Notes under the pieces: model-generated
Told to the model about the DNA's origin: nothing
Database searches by the model: none
Seen by the model: only the letters and a program-made list of their open reading frames with translations
Made by a program: the position numbers and the translations under genes
Source: an uncultured Pelagibacteraceae bacterium
GTDB taxonomy: Bacteria; Pseudomonadota; Alphaproteobacteria; Pelagibacterales; Pelagibacteraceae
Assembly: GCA_902530455.1 (NCBI GenBank)
Contig: CACAAD010000001.1
Coordinates: forward strand, 11,386-75,385
Reading direction: 5' to 3'
Length of the DNA stretch: 64,000 nt
Shown: positions 2,137-15,860 of the stretch, one piece after another
How positions within the stretch are numbered: the first letter of the stretch is position 1
How the letters are laid out: the number at the start of each line of letters is the position of its first letter

Positions 2137-2182
2137 AAAATTATTTTATCTTATTTGCTTGACTTCTAAAATGAGTTATTAT

Positions 2183-2217
2183 ATTACTAATGATAATTAA
2201 TTGTTATCATTAGTAAT
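2183..2217. repeat. Perfect 14-bp inverted repeat with 7-bp asymmetric spacer; candidate recombinase target (lox/dif-like) site
   Basis: ATTACTAATGATAA-ttaattg-TTATCATTAGTAAT, ending 3 nt before the recombinase ATG. Confidence 0.75.
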
Positions 2218-2220
2218 GAT

Positions 2221-3174
2221 ATGAATGAGCTGACAACTGCCATAAAAGCTTTACATGAGAAAACTTTAAATAATCTTAAAGCCTCGAAAGCACATAATAC
2301 TTTAAGGGCATATAGGTCTGATTTTAGAGATTTTACGGTTTTTTGCGTAAAACATGGTTTTAAATCAATGCCCTCTGATCCAAAAATCGTATCATTATAT
2401 TTAACTCACCTATCAAAAAAATCAAAATTTAGCACTTTAAGACGTAGGTTAGTATCAATAAGTGTTATTCATAAATTAAAAGGTCATTATTTAGATACTA
2501 AACATCCAGTAATTATAGAAAATTTAATGGGTATAAAAAGAGCAAAAGGGAGCAAACAAGTAGGTAAAAAACCTATATTAATCAGTCATTTAACGAAAAT
2601 AATTAATGTGATAAATGAACAAAATATTGAGGAAATTGTTAAATTAAGAAATAAGGCTTTAATATTAGTAGGCTTTGGAGGTGGTTTTAGGCGTACTGAG
2701 TTAATATCTACCGATTATGAAGATTTAGAATTCGTTAGTGAGGGCGTAAAAATAACTCTCAAAAGGTCTAAAACAGATCAATTTGGTGAAGGAATGATAA
2801 AAGGTCTACCTTACTTTAGCAAAGAAGATTATTGTCCAGTAACAAGTCTTAAAAATTGGCTTAAAATATCAAAAATTAAAACTGGGCCGATTTTTAGAAG
2901 ATTTGCAAAAGGATCTGCATTAACAGAATATAGATTAACAGATCAGTCAGTGGTTCTAATTATAAAAAACTGTTTAAAATTAGCTGGTATAGAAAATAAT
3001 AATTTTTCAGGACATAGTTTAAGATCTGGTTTTGCGACAGTAGCTGCAGAAGCTGGCGCCGATGAAAGAAGCATAATGGCAATGACAGGTCATAAAACTA
3101 CGCAAATGGTTCGAAGATATATAAAAGAGGCAAATTTGTTTAAAAATAATGCTCTTAATAAAGTTAAAATATGA
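2221..3174 (+). CDS. Cre-like tyrosine site-specific recombinase
   Basis: N-terminal SKAHNTLRAY SAM-like region; catalytic R (GFRRTEL), K (SKTDQ), HxxR (GHSLRSG), H (TGH), Y (VRRYI). Confidence 0.92.
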   Translation: MNELTTAIKALHEKTLNNLKASKAHNTLRAYRSDFRDFTVFCVKHGFKSMPSDPKIVSLYLTHLSKKSKFSTLRRRLVSISVIHKLKGHYLDTKHPVIIENLMGIKRAKGSKQVGKKPILISHLTKIINVINEQNIEEIVKLRNKALILVGFGGGFRRTELISTDYEDLEFVSEGVKITLKRSKTDQFGEGMIKGLPYFSKEDYCPVTSLKNWLKISKIKTGPIFRRFAKGSALTEYRLTDQSVVLIIKNCLKLAGIENNNFSGHSLRSGFATVAAEAGADERSIMAMTGHKTTQMVRRYIKEANLFKNNALNKVKI

Positions 3175-3914
3175 AAAAAGATATAGAATTTTTAATTAAA
3201 AAATTATTTTTTTCTGAAAGTTACCTACTAAAAAAAAGATTAAAAAGAGCAATTAAAAAAGGATATGAAAAAGAACTAAAAATAATTGATAAATTTGCGA
3301 ATAAATCTAAAGATGCTTTGGATATCGGTGTTTATAGGGGTGTATATTCATATAAACTGTCTCAAAGCTTTAAGAATATTCACTCCTTTGAACCTAACCC
3401 CCTTCTATTTCCTTATTTAGATAAAAACTTAAAAAAAATTATAAAGAATATAAAACTATATAATTTTGCGTTATCAGATATTAATGGCAAAACAGAACTA
3501 AAATTGCCTCTAAGATCAAAATCAATATTTAAAGATAATATAGAAGAACTTTTTCAATTAGGGGCAGCAACTATGCACCCAAACAACAATATCAATAAAT
3601 TTAAAAAAGTGCCAATAAATACACGAAGATTAGACGAAATACAAATAGATAACAATGTAGGATTTATAAAAATAGATGTGGAGGGCCACGAAAAAAATGT
3701 GATAGTTGGTGGAAAATCTTTAATTATAAAAGATAAGCCTGTAATGCTAATTGAGATTGAGGAAAGACATACAAAAATACCAGTTAAGGATACTATAAAC
3801 TTTATTAGAGAAATGAACTATGAATGTTTTCATTTGGTTAATGATGAATTAATAAATATAGAAAATAATCATAGCAAAGTCTTAGAAAATAACTTTATTT
3901 TTTTACCTAAATAA
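3171..3914 (+). CDS. FkbM-family methyltransferase
   Basis: LDIGVYRG, SFEPNP and FIKIDVEGHE motifs. Confidence 0.9.
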   Translation: MKKDIEFLIKKLFFSESYLLKKRLKRAIKKGYEKELKIIDKFANKSKDALDIGVYRGVYSYKLSQSFKNIHSFEPNPLLFPYLDKNLKKIIKNIKLYNFALSDINGKTELKLPLRSKSIFKDNIEELFQLGAATMHPNNNINKFKKVPINTRRLDEIQIDNNVGFIKIDVEGHEKNVIVGGKSLIIKDKPVMLIEIEERHTKIPVKDTINFIREMNYECFHLVNDELINIENNHSKVLENNFIFLPK

Positions 3915-4589
3915 AAATGAGATAATTTTTTTTAAGCGATCTAAAAGTTTTTTTTTTACATTAGGATGAAAATATTTTTTACTTTCACCCTTAAAAATAA
4001 ATACAATATTTTGGTAAAAATGCACCGACTCAATTAAACCATCAAAACGTTTTTTTTTGAAAAAAGGTCTATCAAAATTTTCATAATTTACTGAGTCTGA
4101 TAAACTTTTAAAAAAATTCATTGAGGAGTTTTTTTTAATTAAATTTATTCTACTTCCGCCATATCTGGGTATATAAGAAGTTTGCAAATCCTCAACAATA
4201 TAAATACCGTTTTTACTTAAATGATCAAATAAATAATTAAAAGAATTTATAATATGTTTAGAAACATGTGAACCATCATCAATTATAATATCAAATTTAC
4301 CGTGTTTTTTTGCTATTTTATCCAACAGCGTTTTATCATTTTGATCACCCTGATAGATTTTGACATCCTGAATTGTAAAATCTTTTTTATCGATGTCTAT
4401 TCCACAAATTTCAGAGTTAAAAAAATACTCTTTCCATAATCTAAGGCTATCACCCTTGTCTACACCGATTTCTAAAATGTTGAGTTTTTTTTCCCTCAAA
4501 TCTTTAAAATATTTTTCATAAATATCCAAAAAACCATAATCATTTTTGTTAGTTGGATATTTTAAACCTATTTCTTTTAAACTAAGCAT
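3903..4589 (-). CDS. Class I SAM-dependent (sugar O-) methyltransferase
   Basis: ILEIGV, GIDID, FDIIIDDGSH and GIYIVEDL motifs. Confidence 0.85.
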   Translation of the reverse strand: MLSLKEIGLKYPTNKNDYGFLDIYEKYFKDLREKKLNILEIGVDKGDSLRLWKEYFFNSEICGIDIDKKDFTIQDVKIYQGDQNDKTLLDKIAKKHGKFDIIIDDGSHVSKHIINSFNYLFDHLSKNGIYIVEDLQTSYIPRYGGSRINLIKKNSSMNFFKSLSDSVNYENFDRPFFKKKRFDGLIESVHFYQNIVFIFKGESKKYFHPNVKKKLLDRLKKIISFLFR

Positions 4590-4590
4590 T

Positions 4591-5526
4591 CTAAATTTCC
4601 TTCCATTTAAAAGGCCAATAATCTTTATTTTTTATATCAAAATTCGAAAAATGTTTGTTATTGGGTCTCAAAACTATGCTATCTTTGTAATTTGACAGCC
4701 AACAACCCCACCAATTAAATGCAGAAGGTATTACAACAAAATGTTTGCAATTTGTCATTAAAAAAAGATCACAATGAACTCTATCTAGATCATCTTTTAT
4801 ATGTTCGTTATTAATAAATATTATATCTTTTATGTTAAATTTGTTGTCTAAGTTTTTAAAATCGTTAGACCACAAATAAAAAACAGGTTTTTTTAATCTC
4901 ATTTTAAAATAGGATATAGCTTTGTGTATATAGCTAATTTGATCAGATAAAAATTTATTTGATTTTTCTTTGTCATATATACTCGGTTTACCATATTTTT
5001 CTGAAAATCTATTTTGTCTAATACACAAAGAAACAGACTCTGTTTTTTTTATTTTTGATAAATACTCATTGTTAATAAAATCATTATATTGATTTGGTGT
5101 AAATTGTTTTCTAATTTCATCTTTATAGTCTGAAAAATATTTTTCTGACTCAAAATAACCTTCCATGTAAACAGTTTTAGCATATGTTTTGTCAAAAAGT
5201 TTTTCATCGTAAAAAGTTGTTTTATCAGAATTTCTCTTTTCCAATAAAAAATATTTATTTGATCTGTAAACGTCAATTTTTTTTAATAGTTTTCTTTTTA
5301 AATAACCTGATAATCCGTTAAATAGATATTTGCTCTCAGCAGGTTTTTCGTTCAAATTAAATTTCTCTAAACCAAATTTGGATATGTTTTTAAAAGAGTT
5401 GTAGGATGAAATTTTATCGTAATAAAAACTTCTCTTCAATTTTTTTGATGCAGCATATCCCGCAGCATACATAAACATTTGATTACCTATATTATTTGAC
5501 AATCTAATAATTAATTTTCCTGCCAT
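4591..5526 (-). CDS. Alpha-1,2-fucosyltransferase-like glycosyltransferase (GT11)
   Basis: GNQMFMYA, EGYFESEKYF and SAFNWWG motifs; the HxRRxD motif is divergent (CIRQNR). Confidence 0.8.
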   Translation of the reverse strand: MAGKLIIRLSNNIGNQMFMYAAGYAASKKLKRSFYYDKISSYNSFKNISKFGLEKFNLNEKPAESKYLFNGLSGYLKRKLLKKIDVYRSNKYFLLEKRNSDKTTFYDEKLFDKTYAKTVYMEGYFESEKYFSDYKDEIRKQFTPNQYNDFINNEYLSKIKKTESVSLCIRQNRFSEKYGKPSIYDKEKSNKFLSDQISYIHKAISYFKMRLKKPVFYLWSNDFKNLDNKFNIKDIIFINNEHIKDDLDRVHCDLFLMTNCKHFVVIPSAFNWWGCWLSNYKDSIVLRPNNKHFSNFDIKNKDYWPFKWKEI

Positions 5527-6520
5527 TAGCTAGTAAATTTTCTATTCTTCTTATTGTTATACTGAAATTTTTTTTTGGAATTATAAATTGGTAGTTTTTT
5601 TGTTTAGGGACAAACTCATGAAATGCATTTTTATACTTGTAAAAGTCTTCAATAGATTTAATTTCACAATTAAATAAATCAATAACTTTTATCTTTTGTA
5701 TAGCAGCCATTGAGGTAATGGTGCCATGAAAAGAAATAACAATCTTTGCTTCCCCAATTAAATTGAATAAGTGTTCTCCTTTAATATTAGGATAATATTC
5801 AACAATTTGCTCGCCTTTGCTTTTATATTTTTTTAATAATAAATTGTTTGTTTGATGATCATTTAAATCATTAGTTAATGAAATTTTCATTCCAAAGTTT
5901 TTTAATTTGTCTATTAGTACTTCTAAATCTTGTAAATCCAAATTTAATTTGTTGAATTTAAATTTATTATAATGAATTAAAATATAGTCCCGTTTTTTTT
6001 GATTATTGAAATATTTTTCTTTAACAATACCAAATTTATGTTCTGAGCTATTATCTTTTTTTAATAAATTCATGTGTAGCTCGTGTATTGATTTTCTAAT
6101 TTTTTTTGAGCCACGATCATTGATTACCAACTTATTTAAAAAGTTTCTTAAAAATAAAGCTGGTCTTCTATAATTATTCTTGTCTATACAAATTCCAAAA
6201 AAATTTATCCTTTTAAAATAAAATATAAGTGGCAAATAAAATAAAAAATTACTAGGTTTAAAAATAAAAACTTCTTTAATATTATTTTTAAGAAAAAAGA
6301 AAAATAACTTTATTTTGTCTTTTACATTAATTTTTTCTGTGATAACTTTAAAATTTACGTTTTTCGACTTAAATAGAAACTTCATTTCAGAATTATATTG
6401 TGATAAAAAAATAAATACTTCTTTATTTAAATTATTATCTATAATATTCTTTATTGCATTATAAGCATGGATCAAGTCACCAATTTTATCATTCTTGAAG
6501 ATGATAATTTTTTCATTCAT
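5504..6520 (-). CDS. GT9 (heptosyltransferase-like) glycosyltransferase
   Basis: N-terminal NDKIGDLI motif; likely start ATG at 6520 (MNEKIII). Confidence 0.65.
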   Translation of the reverse strand: MNEKIIIFKNDKIGDLIHAYNAIKNIIDNNLNKEVFIFLSQYNSEMKFLFKSKNVNFKVITEKINVKDKIKLFFFFLKNNIKEVFIFKPSNFLFYLPLIFYFKRINFFGICIDKNNYRRPALFLRNFLNKLVINDRGSKKIRKSIHELHMNLLKKDNSSEHKFGIVKEKYFNNQKKRDYILIHYNKFKFNKLNLDLQDLEVLIDKLKNFGMKISLTNDLNDHQTNNLLLKKYKSKGEQIVEYYPNIKGEHLFNLIGEAKIVISFHGTITSMAAIQKIKVIDLFNCEIKSIEDFYKYKNAFHEFVPKQKNYQFIIPKKNFSITIRRIENLLANGRKINY

Positions 6521-8642
6521 TATGCCATATATGTTTGTTTTTACTTTTAACATCAAAAGTTTTATTTATAATGAAATCAGCTACTAATGTAGAATTAAAA
6601 TATTTTAAATATTTATTCCTACCATTTTTTCCTATCTTCTTTCTTAACTTTTCATCTTGAGATATTTTCGATATTTTTTCCGAAAGATCATCTATATTTT
6701 TATAAAATACCATTTCATTTTTGCTGAAAAAATCCTGGTAACCCGTTTTTTCATCGATAAGAGTTACTAAGCCATTGCCAATAATTTGAGTTATTCTATC
6801 ACTACTATAGTATTTTATGGGCTCACCTCTGCTAAGATTTAATCCCATTTTTGAATTTGAAATAGTTTTAAAGTAATGATCTGCCCAAATAGGCTGTACT
6901 TTATCAATTCCATATATATCAAATTTAACATTTTTAGTTTTATCAATTAATCTTTTTACAAACATAGCTCTATCATCATATTTTCCTGATTTTAAAATAC
7001 CTCTATGAACACCATGACTAAGTGCAAAAAAAACATCCATGTTGCAATTTTTATTATAATTTTTTAATGTTTCAAAAGAACTATCAGATGGATTTGGTAT
7101 AAAGTAATTCCTTGTTTTCTTAGATAAAAAACTTAATACATCAGGACTAGTTGTTAAAAAATTTGCCTCCATATAATTAGATTTATCTAAAATTCTGTTC
7201 TTATTTCTTGTAAAATCCGGACCTCTTTTGTTAAGAGGATCAAGGAACCACTGGGACATTTTTAAATTAGGATAATCATCTTTAAGTTCGCCTAAAGTAT
7301 CTGGGGATACTAAGTCAGCATGTCCAAATATTATCAAATCAGGTTTAAAATTATAACAAGTTTTTTTTAATTTATTATTTAAATTTTTAGATCCTGATAA
7401 ATCACTATAATTTTTATAATATTTTTGTATATCTCTATCACTAAACTCTAAAATACTATGCCCTAATCTTATTAAACCATTATTTATTCTTCTACCTGTA
7501 TTAAAAAATAATCTACCATCATGTCTCTCATTAAAATTTGTAACATGCAGTATTCTTAAAGAAACATTTTTTTTGATATTAAATATTTTAGAATATTTAA
7601 ATTTCTCATCTCTATAAGAGTCAATATTAGAAGAAACAAATTTATGTGTTAAATAAAAATTTTTTATAGATTTTTTTTGGTAATTTATTCTTTGTATTTT
7701 ATTTTTAATTAGATAATCAATATTCTTATATAAAGTTTTTACATTTAAATTTTTAAGAATTAAACCATTGGTAATAGTTTCAGGAAGACCACCTCTATTA
7801 CTAATGATTACTGCACATCCTGCAGAAGAAGCTTCTAGACTTGTTCTTCCAAATGGCTCTTCCCATCTGGAACATACTATAGCAATGCTAGTTTTTTTAT
7901 AAATATTGATTACTTTGTTGTGAGGAATAAAACCATAATTCTTTAAATTCTTATGTTTAAATTCAATTTTATCTCTTTGCTCATCACCAACAACATTTGC
8001 TTTCCAATTGGGGTATTTGGTCAAAATTTTTATTACGGCTTTTCCAAAAATATCATAACCTTTTGACCTATTTAATTTGCCAACAAAAGTAATTTGCTTC
8101 ATTTTTTTCTTTAAGTTTACTGTAATTCTTTTTGCAGATTGAAAAACTACCAATAATTTTTCACTGTTAACAAATTTATCATGCATTCCTTCTAAAAATC
8201 TTTTTTTTGACCAATTACTATTGAAAATAATTTTATAACAATTTTTTAAAAGAAATTTTCTTTCATTAATTGATTTTGATCCCGTCATTGTTAGTGGATC
8301 ATTGTGAAAATATAAAACCAAATTCCTTTTACCTAGAGATTTTACAATATCTGATAGATAGTTTGGACGATTATGAACTTCAATTAAATCAGATGGATTA
8401 TCTTTTTCTATTTTAATAAATTTATCAACATATTGCTTACTTTTACTTTGAAATTTAAATTTTGATAATGAAATATTATAGTATTTAATTGGAAAAATTT
8501 TTTTATAATCTGTATTTCCGTAAACTACTATATTTTTTTTATACTTGCTTAAATTGGCTGTATCTTTAACAAATAATGAAACTGCTCCTGGATATATTGG
8601 TGAGAAATTTTCTTTATAAGGTAGTAGTATCGATATTTTCAT
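6513..8642 (-). CDS. Fused glycosyltransferase (GT4 N-half plus CgeB/Glyco_trans_1_2 C-half)
   Basis: SRWEEPFGRTSLEA GT4 motif in the first half; KMGLNLSR...SDRITQIIGNG in the second half. Confidence 0.85.
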   Translation of the reverse strand: MKISILLPYKENFSPIYPGAVSLFVKDTANLSKYKKNIVVYGNTDYKKIFPIKYYNISLSKFKFQSKSKQYVDKFIKIEKDNPSDLIEVHNRPNYLSDIVKSLGKRNLVLYFHNDPLTMTGSKSINERKFLLKNCYKIIFNSNWSKKRFLEGMHDKFVNSEKLLVVFQSAKRITVNLKKKMKQITFVGKLNRSKGYDIFGKAVIKILTKYPNWKANVVGDEQRDKIEFKHKNLKNYGFIPHNKVINIYKKTSIAIVCSRWEEPFGRTSLEASSAGCAVIISNRGGLPETITNGLILKNLNVKTLYKNIDYLIKNKIQRINYQKKSIKNFYLTHKFVSSNIDSYRDEKFKYSKIFNIKKNVSLRILHVTNFNERHDGRLFFNTGRRINNGLIRLGHSILEFSDRDIQKYYKNYSDLSGSKNLNNKLKKTCYNFKPDLIIFGHADLVSPDTLGELKDDYPNLKMSQWFLDPLNKRGPDFTRNKNRILDKSNYMEANFLTTSPDVLSFLSKKTRNYFIPNPSDSSFETLKNYNKNCNMDVFFALSHGVHRGILKSGKYDDRAMFVKRLIDKTKNVKFDIYGIDKVQPIWADHYFKTISNSKMGLNLSRGEPIKYYSSDRITQIIGNGLVTLIDEKTGYQDFFSKNEMVFYKNIDDLSEKISKISQDEKLRKKIGKNGRNKYLKYFNSTLVADFIINKTFDVKSKNKHIWHNE

Positions 8643-8894: not shown

Positions 8895-9686
8895 TTAATA
8901 TCCTTTATTGTCTGGACCTTTTTTAGAACCTTTCATTTTTTCTATTGTGGATTTGGCACCCGCACTCATGTGCCTCTGGTCTGACCCAATTGTTACAAAA
9001 TTAAATCCCGTCTCAATCATTTCTTTTGCATATTCAGGTGAAGCATTATGTACTCCCGCAAATAATTTGTGTTTTTTGGCGTGTTTAAGGATGTTTAAAA
9101 TTTCTGAATGTGTTTTGGATCCCTTAGGGTTATCGAAACCTGGTTTTTGGCCAATAGCTAAGCTTAGGTCAGCTGGTCCGATATAAATGCCATCTAAATT
9201 TGGAGTAGACATAATTTCATCTAAATTTTTCAAAGCCTCGCTGGTTTCAATCATTGCTAATTTAAGTATCTCATCATTAGCATGTGATCCATAGTCTTGT
9301 CCGCCATATAATAATCCTCTTATCGGTCCAAAACTTCTGTAACCTTTAGGAGGGTATAAACAGGCTTGAACAAAATTTTCAGCTTCTTTTCTATTGCTTA
9401 CCATTGGACAAATAATTCCATAACAGCCTGCGTCAAGAATTTTCATTATTTGCCCAGGTTCGTTCCAATTGACTCTAGCGAGAGGTGTTGTTTCGGTAGT
9501 TGAAATTGCTTGTAACATTTGTAAAGCGTTTGGATAATCAATTACACCATGCTGCATATCCAAAGTGAGAGAGTCCCAGCCTTGTTGAGCCATTACTTCT
9601 GCTGAAAATGAGCTTGGAATTTGTAGCCAACCATTGACAACGGGTCGACCTTTTTTCATCATTTTTTTTATTTTGTTTTCTCTCAT
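8895..9686 (-). CDS. HpcH/HpaI family class II pyruvate aldolase
   Basis: LDMQHG, LDAGCYGIICPMV, YPPKGYRS, MIET and YIGPADL motifs. Confidence 0.9.
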   Translation of the reverse strand: MRENKIKKMMKKGRPVVNGWLQIPSSFSAEVMAQQGWDSLTLDMQHGVIDYPNALQMLQAISTTETTPLARVNWNEPGQIMKILDAGCYGIICPMVSNRKEAENFVQACLYPPKGYRSFGPIRGLLYGGQDYGSHANDEILKLAMIETSEALKNLDEIMSTPNLDGIYIGPADLSLAIGQKPGFDNPKGSKTHSEILNILKHAKKHKLFAGVHNASPEYAKEMIETGFNFVTIGSDQRHMSAGAKSTIEKMKGSKKGPDNKGY

Positions 9687-11131
9687 TACTCGTAATGAAC
9701 ACCTAAGTGAGTGTACTTGATATTTAGATAATCCTTAATTGCCATTGAACCACCTTCTCTTCCGTAACCAGTTTGTTTTATACCTCCGAATGGAGCCTCT
9801 GCTACTGCAACAACGGGAGTATTCACAGCAACAGTTCCACTTTCCATTAATTCTGAAGCTTTGTTAGCTTTCTTCATATCATTTGTATAAATATAGCTTG
9901 CTAGACCAAGTTCATTATTATTTGCCCTTTCAACAATTTCGTCAAAATTTTTAAAAGTTAAAATTGGAACGAGTGGTCCAAAAGGCTCTTGCTTCATAAT
10001 TGTGTAATCATCTTTCACATTGTCAAATATTGTTGGTTCATAAAAATACCCTTTATTAAATCCTGCAGGTCTTTTTCCACCACACAATACATTTGCACCT
10101 TCTTTTTTTGTTGTTTCAACAAGGCTTTCAATTTCCTCTAGTCTTTTTTTCGTGGTTAAAGGTCCTAAAACTGTCCCTTTGTCCATACCATTTCCAATTT
10201 TAAGTTTTTTCGTTTTTTCTAACATCAATTTAGTAAAATCAGTTTTTTTGCTTTCGTGAATATAAAATCTTCCAGGGGATATACAAACTTGACCATTATT
10301 TCTAAATTTTGCTGTGATCGCCATATCAGTAACTTTATTAATATCTACATCATCAAAAACAATAAAAGGTGAATGTCCGCTTAATTCCATTGTTACTCTC
10401 TGAACCTTATCAGCAGCTTTTTTTAAAATAAGTTTACCAACTCTAGTAGATCCTGTTATCGAAACTTTTTTTATGATATCAGAAGATAATAACTTATCTG
10501 AAATGTACGCAGGATCACCAGATAATAAATTAATTACACCTGGAGGTACACCAGCTTCTTTACAAATCTCAACCAATTGCATTACTGAACCTGGAGTTAT
10601 TACATCAGGTTTAACAATTACCGAGCACCCCGCAGCTAACGCTGTAGAAATTTTTCGCGATGCTAAAATTATTGGGAAATTCCATGGAACTAATGCTGCT
10701 ACTACACCAACTGGTTGATAGTAAACATGTATTCTAGTATTTGGAAATCTGCTTTGTAAAGTTTCACCATAAATTCTTTTTGTTTCTTCTGAATTCCATT
10801 CAAAAATATCAGCAGCTCCTCCAACCTCACCCGCTCCTTCAGTTAACGGTTTGCCAACTTCTAATGTTAACCATTTTGATAAAATATCTACATTTTTTCT
10901 AATTAATTCTGAAATTTTTCTTATAATTTTTGCTCTTTCCCAAGGTGATGTGTTTTTCCAAATTTCAAGACCTTTTTCAGCAGATTTTAATGCAAGTTCA
11001 ATATCTTTATTGTCGGCTTTAGATGCTTTTCCAATTATTTCCTCTGTTGCCGGATTTAAAACTTCGTATGTTTCACCGCTAGAGGATTTTTGCCATTTGC
11101 CATCTATAAATTGACCAAATTTTTCGTACAT
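9686..11131 (-). CDS. NAD(P)-dependent semialdehyde dehydrogenase (SSADH/KGSADH type)
   Basis: PWNFP, TGSTRVG, MELSG, GQVC (catalytic Cys), EPFGP and PFGGIKQTGYGREG motifs. Confidence 0.9.
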   Translation of the reverse strand: MYEKFGQFIDGKWQKSSSGETYEVLNPATEEIIGKASKADNKDIELALKSAEKGLEIWKNTSPWERAKIIRKISELIRKNVDILSKWLTLEVGKPLTEGAGEVGGAADIFEWNSEETKRIYGETLQSRFPNTRIHVYYQPVGVVAALVPWNFPIILASRKISTALAAGCSVIVKPDVITPGSVMQLVEICKEAGVPPGVINLLSGDPAYISDKLLSSDIIKKVSITGSTRVGKLILKKAADKVQRVTMELSGHSPFIVFDDVDINKVTDMAITAKFRNNGQVCISPGRFYIHESKKTDFTKLMLEKTKKLKIGNGMDKGTVLGPLTTKKRLEEIESLVETTKKEGANVLCGGKRPAGFNKGYFYEPTIFDNVKDDYTIMKQEPFGPLVPILTFKNFDEIVERANNNELGLASYIYTNDMKKANKASELMESGTVAVNTPVVAVAEAPFGGIKQTGYGREGGSMAIKDYLNIKYTHLGVHYE

Positions 11132-11181
11132 AATAAATTCGTTGAAAACGAGAGTATATTTAATTAGGTTATAAAGAATTT

Positions 11182-13026
11182 ATGAAAAATATTCAACTTA
11201 CTTGCGCTCAAGCAATAGTTAAGTTTCTCATCAAACAAAAAATATTGATTAATGGAAAAAAAGAGCCCTTATTTCCAGGTGTATTTGGAATTTTTGGACA
11301 TGGGAATGTAGCTTGTTTAGGTCAAGCATTAGAAGAAAATCAAAAAACACTTCCTACTTGGAGAGGTCATCATGAACAAAATATGGCATTAACAGGTATT
11401 GCTTATTCTAGAGCTAAAAGAAGACAGCAAATTTTTATCGCTACTAGTTCGGTTGGCCCAGGTTCTACAAATATGATTACAGCAGCCGCAGTTGCAATGA
11501 GCAATAGACTTCCAATTTTATTTTTACCAGGTGATACTTTTGCAAATAGAATGCCGGACCCTGTTTTGCAGCAAGTTGAACATTTTGGAAACCCTGGGAC
11601 TACACAAAACGATGGATTTAAATCTGTAGTAAGATATTTTGATAGAATAACCAGACCTGAACAAATTATTTCAACCTTTCCCCAGGCTATTGAAGTTATG
11701 CTCGATCCTGCTGATTGTGGCCCTGCATGTATTTCATTAAGCCAGGATGTCCAAGGTGAAACTTTTGACTACCCCGAGGAGTTTTTTAATGAGAGAATTC
11801 ATGCAATTAGAAGACCTAGACCTGATGATTTTCAAATAAAAAAAGCTGTAGATGTTATTAAAAAATCCAAATCACCTTTAATTATTTCAGGTGGTGGTGT
11901 TTTTTATTCAGATGCCATGGACGAATTATCAAATTTTGCAAAGAAGCATAATATTCCCGTAACACAAACTGTGATGGGTTATTCGACGATGAAAAGAGAT
12001 CACACTCATTTCCTTGGTCCCATAGGAGGTCTAGGCGGCAAGGCAGCTAATAATATGGCAAAAAAAACAGATTTAGCTATAGCAATCGGAACCAAGCTCG
12101 CAGACTTTACAACAGGATCCTGGGCAAATTTCGAAAATCAAAATTTTAAATTAGTAACAATTAACACAGCTAGATTTGACGCCAATAAACATATGGCTCA
12201 AGCTATAGTTGGTGATGCAAAAGTTTCTTTAAACGATTTATCCATAGCCCTTGGCAACTGGAAAGCAGATGAAAGTTGGAATAAAAAAGCTCAAGCGGAA
12301 TTAAAAAGTTGGAATGAATATGTAGATAAAGAAAGTGGACCAACTAATCAAAAATTACCTAGCTACGCACAAGCTGTTGGGGCAATATATAGAAATTCTG
12401 AACCATCTGACATAGCAGTCACAGCAGCCGGAGGTTTAGTTGGTGAAGTTGTTCAAGTATGGAGACCCAGAGAACTTAATACTCATGAAACTGAATGGGG
12501 TTTTAGTTGTATGAGTTACGAGATATCAGGCGCTCTTGGAATAAAAATGGCCAACCCCGAAAAAGAAGTTATAGCATTTGTTGGTGATGGATCTTATTTG
12601 CTCTTCAATTCTGATATTTATAGCTCCGTAATAACTAACAACAAACTGATTATTATTGTTTGTGATAATGGAGGACACGCTGTTATTAATAGGCTTCAGT
12701 TGTATAAAGGTGGTAAAGAATTTAATTGTCTTTTAAAAAGCTCGAAAACTCCAAATTTAGTTCCTGTAAACTTCTCAGAACATGCTAAAAGCATGGGTGC
12801 GAATGGTGAGCATGTAAAATCTATCTCAGATCTTGAAGAAGCTTTTAAAAGAGCTAAAAAATCTAAAAAGACATATGTAATAAGTATACATACAGATGGT
12901 TATCAATGGTTAGAAGGATCAGCCTATTGGGAAAGCCCAACCTTATCTTTGCCCACAACAAAAGAAAATGAAAAAGCTTTAAAAGAACACCTTGAGGGTA
13001 AAAAAAAACAAAGAAAAGGTGTTTAA
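11182..13026 (+). CDS. iolD: 3D-(3,5/4)-trihydroxycyclohexane-1,2-dione acylhydrolase (decyclizing)
   Basis: GIFGHGNV, PDPVLQQVE, GFSCMSYEI and the TPP-binding GDGS...N motif. Confidence 0.95.
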   Translation: MKNIQLTCAQAIVKFLIKQKILINGKKEPLFPGVFGIFGHGNVACLGQALEENQKTLPTWRGHHEQNMALTGIAYSRAKRRQQIFIATSSVGPGSTNMITAAAVAMSNRLPILFLPGDTFANRMPDPVLQQVEHFGNPGTTQNDGFKSVVRYFDRITRPEQIISTFPQAIEVMLDPADCGPACISLSQDVQGETFDYPEEFFNERIHAIRRPRPDDFQIKKAVDVIKKSKSPLIISGGGVFYSDAMDELSNFAKKHNIPVTQTVMGYSTMKRDHTHFLGPIGGLGGKAANNMAKKTDLAIAIGTKLADFTTGSWANFENQNFKLVTINTARFDANKHMAQAIVGDAKVSLNDLSIALGNWKADESWNKKAQAELKSWNEYVDKESGPTNQKLPSYAQAVGAIYRNSEPSDIAVTAAGGLVGEVVQVWRPRELNTHETEWGFSCMSYEISGALGIKMANPEKEVIAFVGDGSYLLFNSDIYSSVITNNKLIIIVCDNGGHAVINRLQLYKGGKEFNCLLKSSKTPNLVPVNFSEHAKSMGANGEHVKSISDLEEAFKRAKKSKKTYVISIHTDGYQWLEGSAYWESPTLSLPTTKENEKALKEHLEGKKKQRKGV

Positions 13027-13031
13027 AATAG

Positions 13032-14189
13032 ATGAAGAAAATTTTTAATGTAGGCCTGATAGGCTGCGGTCATATAGCCGAGACATATTTTAGGGCACAT
13101 AAATATTTTAATAATTTTAAAATAATAAAATGTGCTGATATCAACAACAAAGCTGCAATTAAATGTGCTAAAGAGAATAGAATTAAAGCTGTTTCAATAA
13201 AAGAGTTATTAAATGATAAAAATATAAAAGTAATTTTAAATTTAACAGTTCCAACAGCTCATTATTCTGTTGCAAAACTTGCTCTTACACATGGTAAGCA
13301 TGTTTACTCAGAAAAACCTTTAGCAATAAATCTATCTGATGGAATAAAATTAATTAAATTAGCAAGAAAAAAGAAATTGTATGTTGGAAATGCACCAGAT
13401 ACATTTTTGGGTGGCGGCATTCAGAAATCAAGAGAGCTTTTAGATAAAAAAACTATTGGTAAGGTTAAATTTGGAAATGCAATTTTTGCGTACCCAGGTG
13501 TCCAATCTTATCATCCAAACCCTGAACCGTGGTTTGCAAAAAAAGGTGGTGGTCCTGTAATAGATATGGGCCCATATTATTTAACTGCTTTAGTAAACTT
13601 ATTAGGCCCGGCAAAAGAAGTTTTTAGTCAATCCGAAAAAGGTAAATCAAAAAGAGTTATTGGCATTGGCCCTAAGAAAGGTAAAAAGTTTAAAGTGCAA
13701 TGCCCAACAACTTATTTTTCAACAATTAAATTTTTAAATGGAACTATTATCAGACTAACACTTTCTTTCGATGTAATTTCACATTTAAGAAATCATATTG
13801 AATTATATGGTAATAAGGGATCAATGATTGTTCCTGACCCAAATATGTTTGGTGGATCAGTTTTAATTAGTAAAAAATTAGGAAGTTCATGGAAAAATTT
13901 TAAGACAAATCAAATGACTCTTGGAAAAATTAATATTAGAACACAAAGTTCACGAGCTAATGAGTCACCGACTAATGCTAATTATAGAGGTGTAGGATTG
14001 TCTGAGATGATAAGTTCTATTCAAAAAAAGAAATTGCATAAATGTAACGGAAATCTATCTTTACATGTGTTAAGCATCATAGATGCAATACACAATTCTG
14101 CAAAAAAAGGAAAAAAAGTTAAAATAAATCAGTTATGCGATAGACCTAGTGTTTTCTCTAAGAAAGAGATTAAAAATATTATTAAATAA
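13032..14189 (+). CDS. Gfo/Idh/MocA family oxidoreductase
   Basis: GLIGCGHI, GKHVYSEKPL, APDTFLG and GGGPVIDMGPYY motifs. Confidence 0.9.
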   Translation: MKKIFNVGLIGCGHIAETYFRAHKYFNNFKIIKCADINNKAAIKCAKENRIKAVSIKELLNDKNIKVILNLTVPTAHYSVAKLALTHGKHVYSEKPLAINLSDGIKLIKLARKKKLYVGNAPDTFLGGGIQKSRELLDKKTIGKVKFGNAIFAYPGVQSYHPNPEPWFAKKGGGPVIDMGPYYLTALVNLLGPAKEVFSQSEKGKSKRVIGIGPKKGKKFKVQCPTTYFSTIKFLNGTIIRLTLSFDVISHLRNHIELYGNKGSMIVPDPNMFGGSVLISKKLGSSWKNFKTNQMTLGKINIRTQSSRANESPTNANYRGVGLSEMISSIQKKKLHKCNGNLSLHVLSIIDAIHNSAKKGKKVKINQLCDRPSVFSKKEIKNIIK

Positions 14190-15066
14190 GATTATCTCTT
14201 GCTAAAAACGCTGCACCTCTAACTCCACTCGCATCACCATGAGCAGGATGACTAAATATTGTATGCAATTTTTTAACTTCAAGATATTTTAATACAATAT
14301 TTTTAATTTCGTCTAAATTTTTAATTTCGTTTGATAAACCACCACCAAAAACAATTATTTCAGGATCAATAATATTTATTAATGAGGCTAAAGAGCGTGC
14401 GAGTCTATTTTTAAAAGATAATATAAATTTTTTATTATTCTTATCATTTAAAATTTGATGAGCACTTTTTTTAGAATTTTTTTTGCTTTTATATAAATTT
14501 TCTAGTCCCTTTCCTGATATAAATTGTTGAGATGTAAATTTATAATCATATTTAACCTTAGTTTTTTTTTCATCTAATCCATAACCAGGTAAAAAATTAT
14601 GACCCCATTCACCAGCTATATGATTTGCCCCACGTATTATTTTTTTATTTATTACATATCCACCACCTGTACCAGAACCAAGAATTATTCCAAAAACTGA
14701 ACTATAATCTTTTGCTACACCATCAATTGACTCCGATAAAGCAAAACAGTTTGCATCGTTTTCGAATTTTAATTTATTTGGAATCAATGCTGATAAGTCG
14801 TGCTTAATCTTTTTATTTTTAATACATTTTAAGTTATATGTATTAAAAACTTTACCTTTTGAGTCTATGGACCCTGGGTGGCAGATACCTACATTTAAAT
14901 TTTGATTATATTTCGTTGATAAACTTTTAATGATAGATGAAATTGTTTCTAAGAGTTTTTTATAATTACTTGGTGTAATTTCTCTTTGTCTAACTATTTC
15001 TGAATTATTACTATCTAGAATAATATATTCAATCTTAGTAGCACCTAAATCTATACCTATTTGCAT
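14182..15066 (-). CDS. ROK family sugar kinase (Mak-like)
   Basis: GIDLGATK, ENDANCFALSE, GIILGSGTGGG, AGEWGH and GDASGVRGAA motifs; no N-terminal HTH. Confidence 0.9.
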   Translation of the reverse strand: MQIGIDLGATKIEYIILDSNNSEIVRQREITPSNYKKLLETISSIIKSLSTKYNQNLNVGICHPGSIDSKGKVFNTYNLKCIKNKKIKHDLSALIPNKLKFENDANCFALSESIDGVAKDYSSVFGIILGSGTGGGYVINKKIIRGANHIAGEWGHNFLPGYGLDEKKTKVKYDYKFTSQQFISGKGLENLYKSKKNSKKSAHQILNDKNNKKFILSFKNRLARSLASLINIIDPEIIVFGGGLSNEIKNLDEIKNIVLKYLEVKKLHTIFSHPAHGDASGVRGAAFLARDNLI

Positions 15067-15068
15067 TT

Positions 15069-15860
15069 CTACGTAGAAATTCTATTCATTTCTTTAAGTT
15101 CAACTTCTAATTTATCAAGCTCTTCTCCGCCAGCCATCATACTCAGAAGTTTTTCTCTGGAAATATCTTTCTTTTCATATGTTCCTAAACTTTTACCTCG
15201 ATTGAGAACTGTAAAACTATTTCCTACTGGATAAGCGTGATGTACGTTATGTGTTATTAAAATTACCGCTAAACCTTGTGATGCAGCTTTAACTATATAT
15301 TTTAACACTACTGATGCTTGATGAACTCCTAATGCAGAAGTAGGCTCATCGAGAATTAAGACCTTAGCCCCAAAGTATATAGCTCTACTAATAGCAAGAC
15401 ATTGTCTTTCTCCACCAGACATAGTTCCAACTGCTTGTGATGGGTCCCTTATATCGATACCTATTTGTCCCATTCTTTCTGCAGCAATTTTATTTGCCTT
15501 TTTTATGTCAAAAGTTTTAAAAAAAGGAGGTCCTTTTAAAGGTTCCCTGCCCATAAAGAAATTTCTTGTAACACTCATTAAGGAAACCAAAGCTAAATCT
15601 TGATAAACCGTAGCAATACCTATATCCAAAGCTTCTTTCGGACTATCAAAAATTATTTTTTCTCCTTCAAATATAATTTCTCCCTCGTCAGGTTTGTGGA
15701 CCCCTGCAAGTGTTTTGATTAAAGTGGATTTACCTGCTCCATTATCTCCTAGCAAACACATAATTTCACCCTTACGAAGTTTCATAGTAACGTTTTTAAG
15801 CGCAATTACTTTGCCAAAAAATTTACTGATATTATTAAATTGAACTAAATATTCAGACAT
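15069..15860 (-). CDS. Sugar (inositol) ABC transporter ATP-binding protein
   Basis: [16 protein letters not shown] and ILDEPT motifs. Confidence 0.92.

Follow-up and report, generated by a model that had tools for sequence, protein, structure and literature searches.

Cre/loxP placed at dif can replace XerCD/dif in E. coli, where it depends on FtsK translocation rather than on activation (PMC2680272). Among natural enzymes, XerS and XerH have been classed in a Xer subgroup (PMC8138268), TnpS has been described as Cre-related (PMC4337579), and Cre-type pairs with 8-bp spacers have been mined to give about 500 predicted pairs (PMC10250229); these and the other papers given by PMC number are cited for the parts of their text that were accessible. 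Carnoy and Roten listed P. ubique as lacking dif/Xer, reported in the accessible sections no evidence for loxP/Cre-like substitutes, and asked how cells without dif/Xer handle dimers (PMC2731167). The available portions of PMC3025954 and PMC8138268 do not mention Pelagibacter, the main text of a preprint on the SAR11 cell cycle (10.1101/2025.06.25.661606) contains neither Xer nor FtsK, and our literature search, outside which most subscription papers fell, returned no published description of the module treated here.

The locus considered here lies in a window of 64,000 nt (the whole stretch of Pelagibacteraceae DNA that was analysed) and combines a tyrosine recombinase gene with a palindromic site immediately upstream. 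From sequence comparisons across the family, we regard it as quite likely that this is a domesticated plasmid-type Cre/lox module which resolves chromosome dimers of the Pelagibacteraceae in place of XerC/XerD.

The recombinase and its adjoining palindrome

The recombinase gene (2221..3174, + strand) is an uninterrupted reading frame for a 317-aa protein that matches PF00589; it was the only PF00589 gene found in the window's assembly and, by profiles, fold and orthologues, represents a Cre-type enzyme present in single copy across the Pelagibacteraceae. Alignment placed K184, H265, R268, H291 and Y300 on Cre K201, H289, R292, W315 and Y324, while R157, aligned one column before Cre I174, falls on Cre R173. 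These six residues, the R-K-H-R-H/W-Y set of the tyrosine recombinases, were invariant in 77/77 orthologues, and the sequence-only reading, which had proposed an intact enzyme with a full R-K-HxxR-H-Y set, was right on this point. The codon of the predicted catalytic tyrosine, Y300, occupies 3118..3120 (+), as judged from alignment and invariance.

The same reading had described a Cre-type N-terminus, and Cre was indeed matched over both domains. A profile of 40 orthologues found Cre as its best match across the two, and XerD and XerA in the catalytic part only; the predicted model (pLDDT 84) matched Cre with a TM of 0.77, Z of 24.6 and rmsd of 3.3 over residues 15-317, XerH with a TM of 0.59 and Z of 19.0, and XerD with a Z of 13.1. 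On the predicted model, the enzyme has the Cre fold in both domains and is nearer Cre than Xer or lambda Int. Scores against the Xer models were far below their cut-offs (XerD 72 of 330 bits, XerC 62 of 335, XerA 61 of 220, XerS 40 of 267). The enzyme has neither the sequence nor the second paralogue of a XerC/XerD pair, and it does not belong with XerS, XerA or XerH, the last ranking below Cre by profile and fold and the site having a 7-nt centre against one of 6 nt. A divergent tnpT partner and a Tn3-family transposase, which mark TnpS/TnpT systems, are both absent from the locus. Outside the family, the closest sequences are those of uncharacterised plasmid enzymes of the recombinase kind, 35-43% identical; the pWW0 integrase is 28% identical to the recombinase (E 2e-36) and Cre 18-22%. 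In all seven plasmid relatives inspected, a palindrome sharing the inner motif of the window site lies at most 1 kb upstream, with centres of 6 nt in four, 7 nt in two and 8 nt in one.

The site upstream of the gene is an inverted repeat, perfect over 14 bp, with a left arm of type A (2183..2196, +), predicted to bind one monomer, a right arm (2204..2217, +) pairing with it, and an asymmetric 7-nt centre (2197..2203, +), the predicted strand-exchange region, which measures 7 nt in 76/76 host loci. Three nucleotides separate its end from the ATG at 2221, so that the repeat, spacer and start codon of the sequence-only reading were borne out to the nucleotide. The 622-kb assembly holds 14 perfect inverted repeats with arms of at least 11 bp, and this palindrome alone reaches at least 14 bp; a comparable 14-bp repeat arose in 1/60 Markov resamples of the window. 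That reading had also seen no second copy of the site, and across the assembly (622 kb, 54% complete) none was present within 6 mismatches. One intergenic palindromic site per chromosome is the rule; G049 has two, with the gene duplicated and broken.

The spacer had been called odd, differing at 7 bp from dif (6) and loxP (8). The 7-nt centre stands, but in the loxP register (13-bp arms counted from the inner TAT) the window site reads 13+9+13, and its spacer is thus one base longer than loxP's, not shorter. The site therefore departs from the 8-bp spacer between 13-bp arms that is typical of Cre-type enzymes, having 9 bp in the lox register, and agrees with them in having a palindromic target with arms of 13-15 bp near the gene, type B arms being fully paired over 9 bp. 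Nor is 7 bp a peculiarity of this system, since it is shared with two plasmid relatives and phage copies use 6, 7 or 8.

The -35-like hexamer TTGACT noted earlier is present at 2159..2164 (+) and is assigned to the predicted recombinase promoter. Its spacing is kept in 76/76 loci, the distance from the start of TTGAC to the spacer being 37-39 nt throughout and 38 nt in 46/46 type A loci. The predicted -10 element (2182..2187, +), placed by its spacing of 17 nt after the -35 and of weak consensus, overlaps the left arm; a strict sigma-70 promoter scan did not call this -35/-10 pair.

Since the site covers part of the predicted -10 and keeps a fixed distance from TTGAC, the palindrome could be only an operator, through which the recombinase or a host regulator represses the gene, while the enzyme acts elsewhere or is itself a regulator similar to MrpR of SPbeta. 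Recombinase-fold repressors do occur among the structural matches (SroF, Z 13.4; MrpR, Z 12.4), and 43/46 phage copies have spacers unlike the host's. Nonetheless, the invariance of six catalytic residues in 77/77 orthologues argues against a mere regulator, the asymmetric spacer keeps its length, and nearly its sequence, when an operator would need neither, and the site core lacks the extra copies expected of a regulon. An operator would moreover leave the chromosome position and the mutual exclusion with XerCD unexplained, and we hold this explanation to be improbable as compared with dimer resolution.

The genes around the recombinase encode a membrane transporter, an O6-methylguanine methyltransferase and methyl- and glycosyltransferases, and iol genes are also present. 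Its immediate surroundings contain no cargo or transposase, in agreement with the earlier remark that phage and conjugation genes are missing nearby (ORFs annotated to about 14 kb). Divergently from the recombinase run an ORF of 133 aa (1567-1968, - strand, no Pfam/NCBIfam match) and then a short ogt-like gene (1311-1628), which the ORF overlaps. On the other side, in 3171-8642, an FkbM methyltransferase gene overlaps the recombinase stop codon and is followed by convergent methyl-/glycosyltransferase genes, and the sequence downstream of the recombinase varies among relatives. Further on, 8895-15066 is probably a catabolic cluster of the inositol type, with iolD, genes for an aldolase, a semialdehyde dehydrogenase and a further dehydrogenase, and a kinase-like ORF.

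Chromosome position and occurrence in the family

G175 and G046 are complete genomes of two different genera; their cumulative GC-skew maxima (995,999 and 427,063) lie 2.8 and 0.9 kb from the sites (998,842 and 426,163). On the window's own contig the maximum at 15,353 is 1.8 kb from the site at 13,585, with a skew of +0.137 on the left and -0.077 on the right. Beyond these three sequences, position rests on motif polarity and on the distance from dnaA. The octamer GAGNAGGG, selected for polarity in G175 and G046, points toward the site at 38:6 and 29:4 respectively in these two selection genomes, and its best-fit switch interval, covering 1-5% of the genome, contains the site in 8/9 other genomes (G103 was left out); the genomes tested are related and hence not independent. 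In G175 the polarity of GAGNAGGG does not depend on gene strand (16:2 within lagging-strand genes); in G046 it does (5:4). Canonical KOPS, GGGNAGGG, for which the sequence-only reading had suggested a polarity check, is polarised at the site in G175 (13:2) and not in G046 (7:6); GAGNAGGG, being more polarised than canonical KOPS, may be the FtsK-orienting motif of SAR11. The distance from dnaA to the gene is 0.40-0.50 of the genome in 44/45 one-contig genomes (sizes rounded, two adjusted). G061 fails both the motif-polarity and the dnaA-distance test; G061:C1 implies one very short and one very long replichore, and is likely a mis-ordered scaffold or else carries a large inversion.

GC skew tracks gene orientation in these genomes, and skew and gene convergence therefore count as one line of evidence, not two. 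Orientation-corrected skew, computed on fourfold sites, gave sharp origins (about 340 kb in G175, 1,015 kb in G046) whose antipodes lie about 5 kb and 59 kb from the site. The corrected terminus is a flat plateau, at about 790-1,110 kb in G175 and 400-530 kb in G046, with point minima 89 and 102 kb from the site and a G/C maximum 153 kb away in G175. Since these extremes are 89-153 kb off, the tight convergence on the site reflects gene direction and a polar motif, and the point where forks meet is loosely placed. The suggestion of a terminus location thus holds at the switch of skew or polarity (G175, G046 and the own contig, with G061 as the exception), while corrected skew, too flat to pinpoint the site, delivers only a broad terminus plateau.

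The module is nearly universal in the family. The family set comprised 146 genomes (G000 and 145 others of 93% completeness or more; the unpublished G064 counts as one genome in the tallies and is the sole basis of no claim). The recombinase gene and the 17-nt site core occurred together in 135 of them, against 5 matches for a reversed control pattern; the 11 genomes without gene and site are fragmented assemblies of 20-70 contigs each, and all 45 one-contig genomes have the gene. The best 80 relatives in the GTDB collection are all titled Pelagibacteraceae, Pelagibacterales or Pelagibacter. In 7/8 genera, almost every genome has one intact copy of the gene. It is frameshifted by one base in 2/45 one-contig genomes, G087 and G093 (loci L373 and L375), possibly through sequencing error, and both gene and site are duplicated and broken in G049 (duplicated copy L374), the only one of the 146 with two host-type cores. 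A loose site pattern gave extra matches in ten genomes, with spacers other than the host's except in G049.

Conservation of the palindrome upstream of orthologues, which the sequence-only reading had named as a check, was borne out: the site core precedes the gene in 76/76 loci, with a 7-nt centre every time, and in 79/80 of an overlapping set of GTDB loci, the single miss being at a contig edge. L012, in which the recombinase is 5'-truncated, was left out of the 76; in this locus (G013:C15) the 5' end is replaced by a fusion to iolD-like sequence, possibly an amplification chimera.

The replacement of XerCD raised by the same reading is supported by the distribution of the two systems. The XerD model TIGR02225 was above cut-off in 0/146 genomes; its top score, 89.5 bits, came from the recombinase gene itself, as did all 9 matches at E<=1e-22, and no gene of XerC/XerD grade was present among the 146. 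The sister family possesses XerC and XerD and not the recombinase gene: G025 reaches 316 and 254 bits with the XerD model, two strong PF00589 genes are found in 15/16 genomes, a canonical-looking dif core in 3/5, and the recombinase gene in 0/20 at E<=1e-30. In one sister-family locus, L218 (G028:C21), the dif-like core occurs twice, inverted, making one palindromic site. RecA was found in 4/4 complete Pelagibacteraceae genomes and FtsK with its gamma domain in 5/5.

These data also bear on the proposal that the Pelagibacteraceae have ordinary XerC/XerD and dif, with the Cre-like module as an accessory. A preprint (10.64898/2026.10.07.757358), in its accessible part, names XerC and XerD from annotation in 15 Arctic SAR11 genomes, and a loose dif pattern matched in 2/4 family genomes. 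Databases, however, label the recombinase "site-specific recombinase XerD", which can explain that annotation, and an XerD-grade match was present in 0/146 genomes. The loose dif pattern gave 3 matches against 6 for the reversed control, and only one match was near the site, 15 kb off, in G052. As P. ubique too was reported to lack dif/Xer (PMC2731167), we consider this proposal very improbable indeed, and replacement of XerC/XerD by the Cre-like module the better account.

Arm types, gene exchange and copies in phages

Two types of site and enzyme occur in the family and go together in 76/76 loci. The 46 proteins with a 12-residue hairpin and Q242 all stand behind type A arms, in which pairing extends to position 14, and the 30 proteins without hairpin and with K at 242 all stand behind type B arms, fully paired over 9 positions; two spacer sequences cover 70/76 host loci. 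In the window, this type A mark is encoded by codons 226-242 (2896..2946, +). Within it, K230 aligns with Cre K244 and Q242 with Cre R259, and in Cre these two residues, R259 and K244, read the loxP arm and its outer edge. Both types are found in genera g1, g8 and g11. A Fur-type box was set aside as an explanation of the palindrome, given that arm type follows recombinase type with both types in three genera; the half-site spacing of a Fur box is also unlike the palindrome's.

In the gene tree, monophyly was rejected for genus g8 (p-AU 1e-4) and for genus g1 (2e-86), which indicates that the module moves between genera, although the trees were quick ones and the tested groups were picked after the first tree. 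The gene tree had no Xer rows, and Cre and the pWW0 integrase sat on very long branches, for which reasons it was taken as unrooted. Type A as a single clade was not rejected (p-AU 0.605), and the match between arm and protein may hence reflect one event. In genus g8, the type A gene of loci L060 and L061 (G051 and G055) clusters with genes from g11 and g1, and the promoter stretch before it resembles that of other members of g8; an in-place swap of the gene, at or close to the site, may have occurred. Overall, a resolvase of plasmid type is the probable source of the module, acquired after the lineage had parted from the sister family with its XerCD, and exchange in place between genera probably continues.

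Such mobility raises the alternative of a remnant of mobile DNA or a landing pad, i.e., a plasmid or transposon resolvase near the terminus that serves cassette or phage integration. Plasmid recombinases are the nearest relatives (35-43% identity), the tree rejects g8 and g1 as clades, glycosyl- and methyltransferase genes lie downstream of the recombinase, and phage contigs bear the site. A remnant would, however, hardly persist as one intact copy in almost every genome of 7/8 genera, and neither cargo nor transposase adjoins the gene. Only G049 among the 146 genomes has two host-type cores, and there the gene is doubled and broken as well, so that no integrated element between two sites was seen in the set. 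We therefore judge this alternative unlikely, to much the same degree as the operator, and retain dimer resolution as the main function of the module.

Viral contigs nonetheless carry the site in number (L228-L243 and L325-L370; L244:6001-6035 for phage Greip). Exact host-type sites were found in 16 viral contigs, several of them near-duplicates, 12 with both arm types adjacent and none with the SAR11 recombinase gene within the flanks inspected. With the centre left free at 4-9 nt, type A arms occurred in 46 viral contigs (about 35 distinct), against none for the reversed control, and the centres were of 6 nt (12), 7 nt (25) or 8 nt (9) and of no other length. A type-B-like site lies at most 70 nt away in 22/46 contigs, terminase genes adjoin 28/46, and the centre is identical to a host spacer in 3/46 and different in 43/46. 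In the cultured Pelagibacter phage Greip, a type A site with a centre of 6 nt lies between genes, some 550 nt ahead of the terminase gene. A PF00589 gene was found in none of the 5 phage records searched, four of which are fragments. The viral search with the recombinase protein returned a distant phage integrase fragment and nothing closer; in a phage collection the protein matched 9 records, four of them near-full-length at 25-27% identity.

Marine phages probably carry copies of the palindrome in order to borrow the host enzyme, as far as sequence can indicate, and their divergent spacers would be easier to reconcile with self-recombination or simple binding than with integration into the host site. 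A reading that joins host and phage is more tentative, and we rate it as doubtful though conceivable: Cre/lox would have replaced XerCD/dif in the form of two swapped alleles, integrase-less phages would borrow the enzyme, and host and phage would be engaged in an arms race. In such a scheme, the SAR11 specificity alleles (Q plus hairpin, or K without hairpin) would be swapped in place between genera, and integrase-less SAR11 phages would circularise or monomerise their own genomes with the host enzyme. The phages would keep the arms near their terminase genes while the spacer drifts and so avoids recombining with the chromosome, tandem A and B arms would let a phage work in either host type, and the arms race over a housekeeping recombinase would maintain both alleles.

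Proposed mechanism and relation to known systems

For dimer resolution itself, one monomer would bind each arm, as Cre binds loxP, and two sites on a chromosome dimer would synapse as a homotetramer, in which Y300 would exchange strands across the 7-bp core to yield two monomers. Uniting the two sites at the septum would be the task of FtsK, which Cre/loxP also requires when it stands at the dif position of E. coli; complex prediction for the catalytic domain and the gamma domain of FtsK scored 0.00 in two runs, a result that weighs neither way. Enzyme bound to the left arm would cover the predicted -10, repressing its own promoter and staying scarce.

The module supplies a named gene and a 35-bp site for the question of dimers in SAR11, the general form of which was put by Carnoy and Roten (PMC2731167). 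If the reading is true, it would be a natural exchange of Cre for Xer, achieved until now by engineering alone. Two recombinase/site pairs that are likely orthogonal come with it, together with a natural switch of specificity, and a site that can serve as a precise terminus marker for SAR11 genomes and possibly as a host-range marker in SAR11 phages.

In its working, the module would resemble the single-recombinase systems of dimer resolution (XerS, XerH and XerL), with an enzyme that is Cre-type and of plasmid kinship by sequence. XerS/difSL of streptococci and lactococci and XerH/difH of Campylobacter and Helicobacter likewise consist of one recombinase with an adjacent site near the terminus and replace XerCD; difSL and difH differ in their 6-nt centre and other arms (PMC2731167), the XerS model gives the SAR11 enzyme 40 bits against a cut-off of 267, and the fold match to XerH is below that to Cre. 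XerL/dif of the Legionellales, here compared by description, is alike in belonging to a lineage once listed without dif/Xer, in its long unbroken arms and in the copying of the site by mobile elements; the XerL gene of Coxiella is plasmid-borne, and that of L. pneumophila lies more than 400 kb from its site, unlike the adjoining SAR11 pair (PMC9765430). With XerCD/dif the module shares the predicted job, the terminus position and an FtsK with gamma domain, but it uses one enzyme and two equal arms, and scores only 72/330 bits on XerD and 62/335 on XerC.

By sequence, the nearest systems are the Cre-like enzymes of plasmids and transposons, including TnpS of the Tn4651 type; the seven plasmid relatives share the inner motif of the palindrome, with centres of 6-8 nt. 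The pWW0 integrase is taken to be TnpS from its divergent DNA-binding neighbour, and in its intergenic region the site core was found only with two mismatches. As compared to the TnpS systems, the SAR11 locus has no TnpT-like partner or transposase, and is distinguished by its terminus position and by its single copy throughout the family.

Cre/loxP of phage P1 remains the best match by fold and profile, and shares identical arms, an asymmetric spacer and a site upstream of the gene; the inner arm motif of other Cre-type sites is also that of the SAR11 site (PMC10250229). The SAR11 enzyme, at 18-22% identity, has His where Cre has W315, and its site has a spacer one base longer than loxP's in the lox register and lies directly over the predicted promoter. 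In contrast to Cre/loxP, moreover, the SAR11 module is natural, chromosomal and nearly universal in one family.
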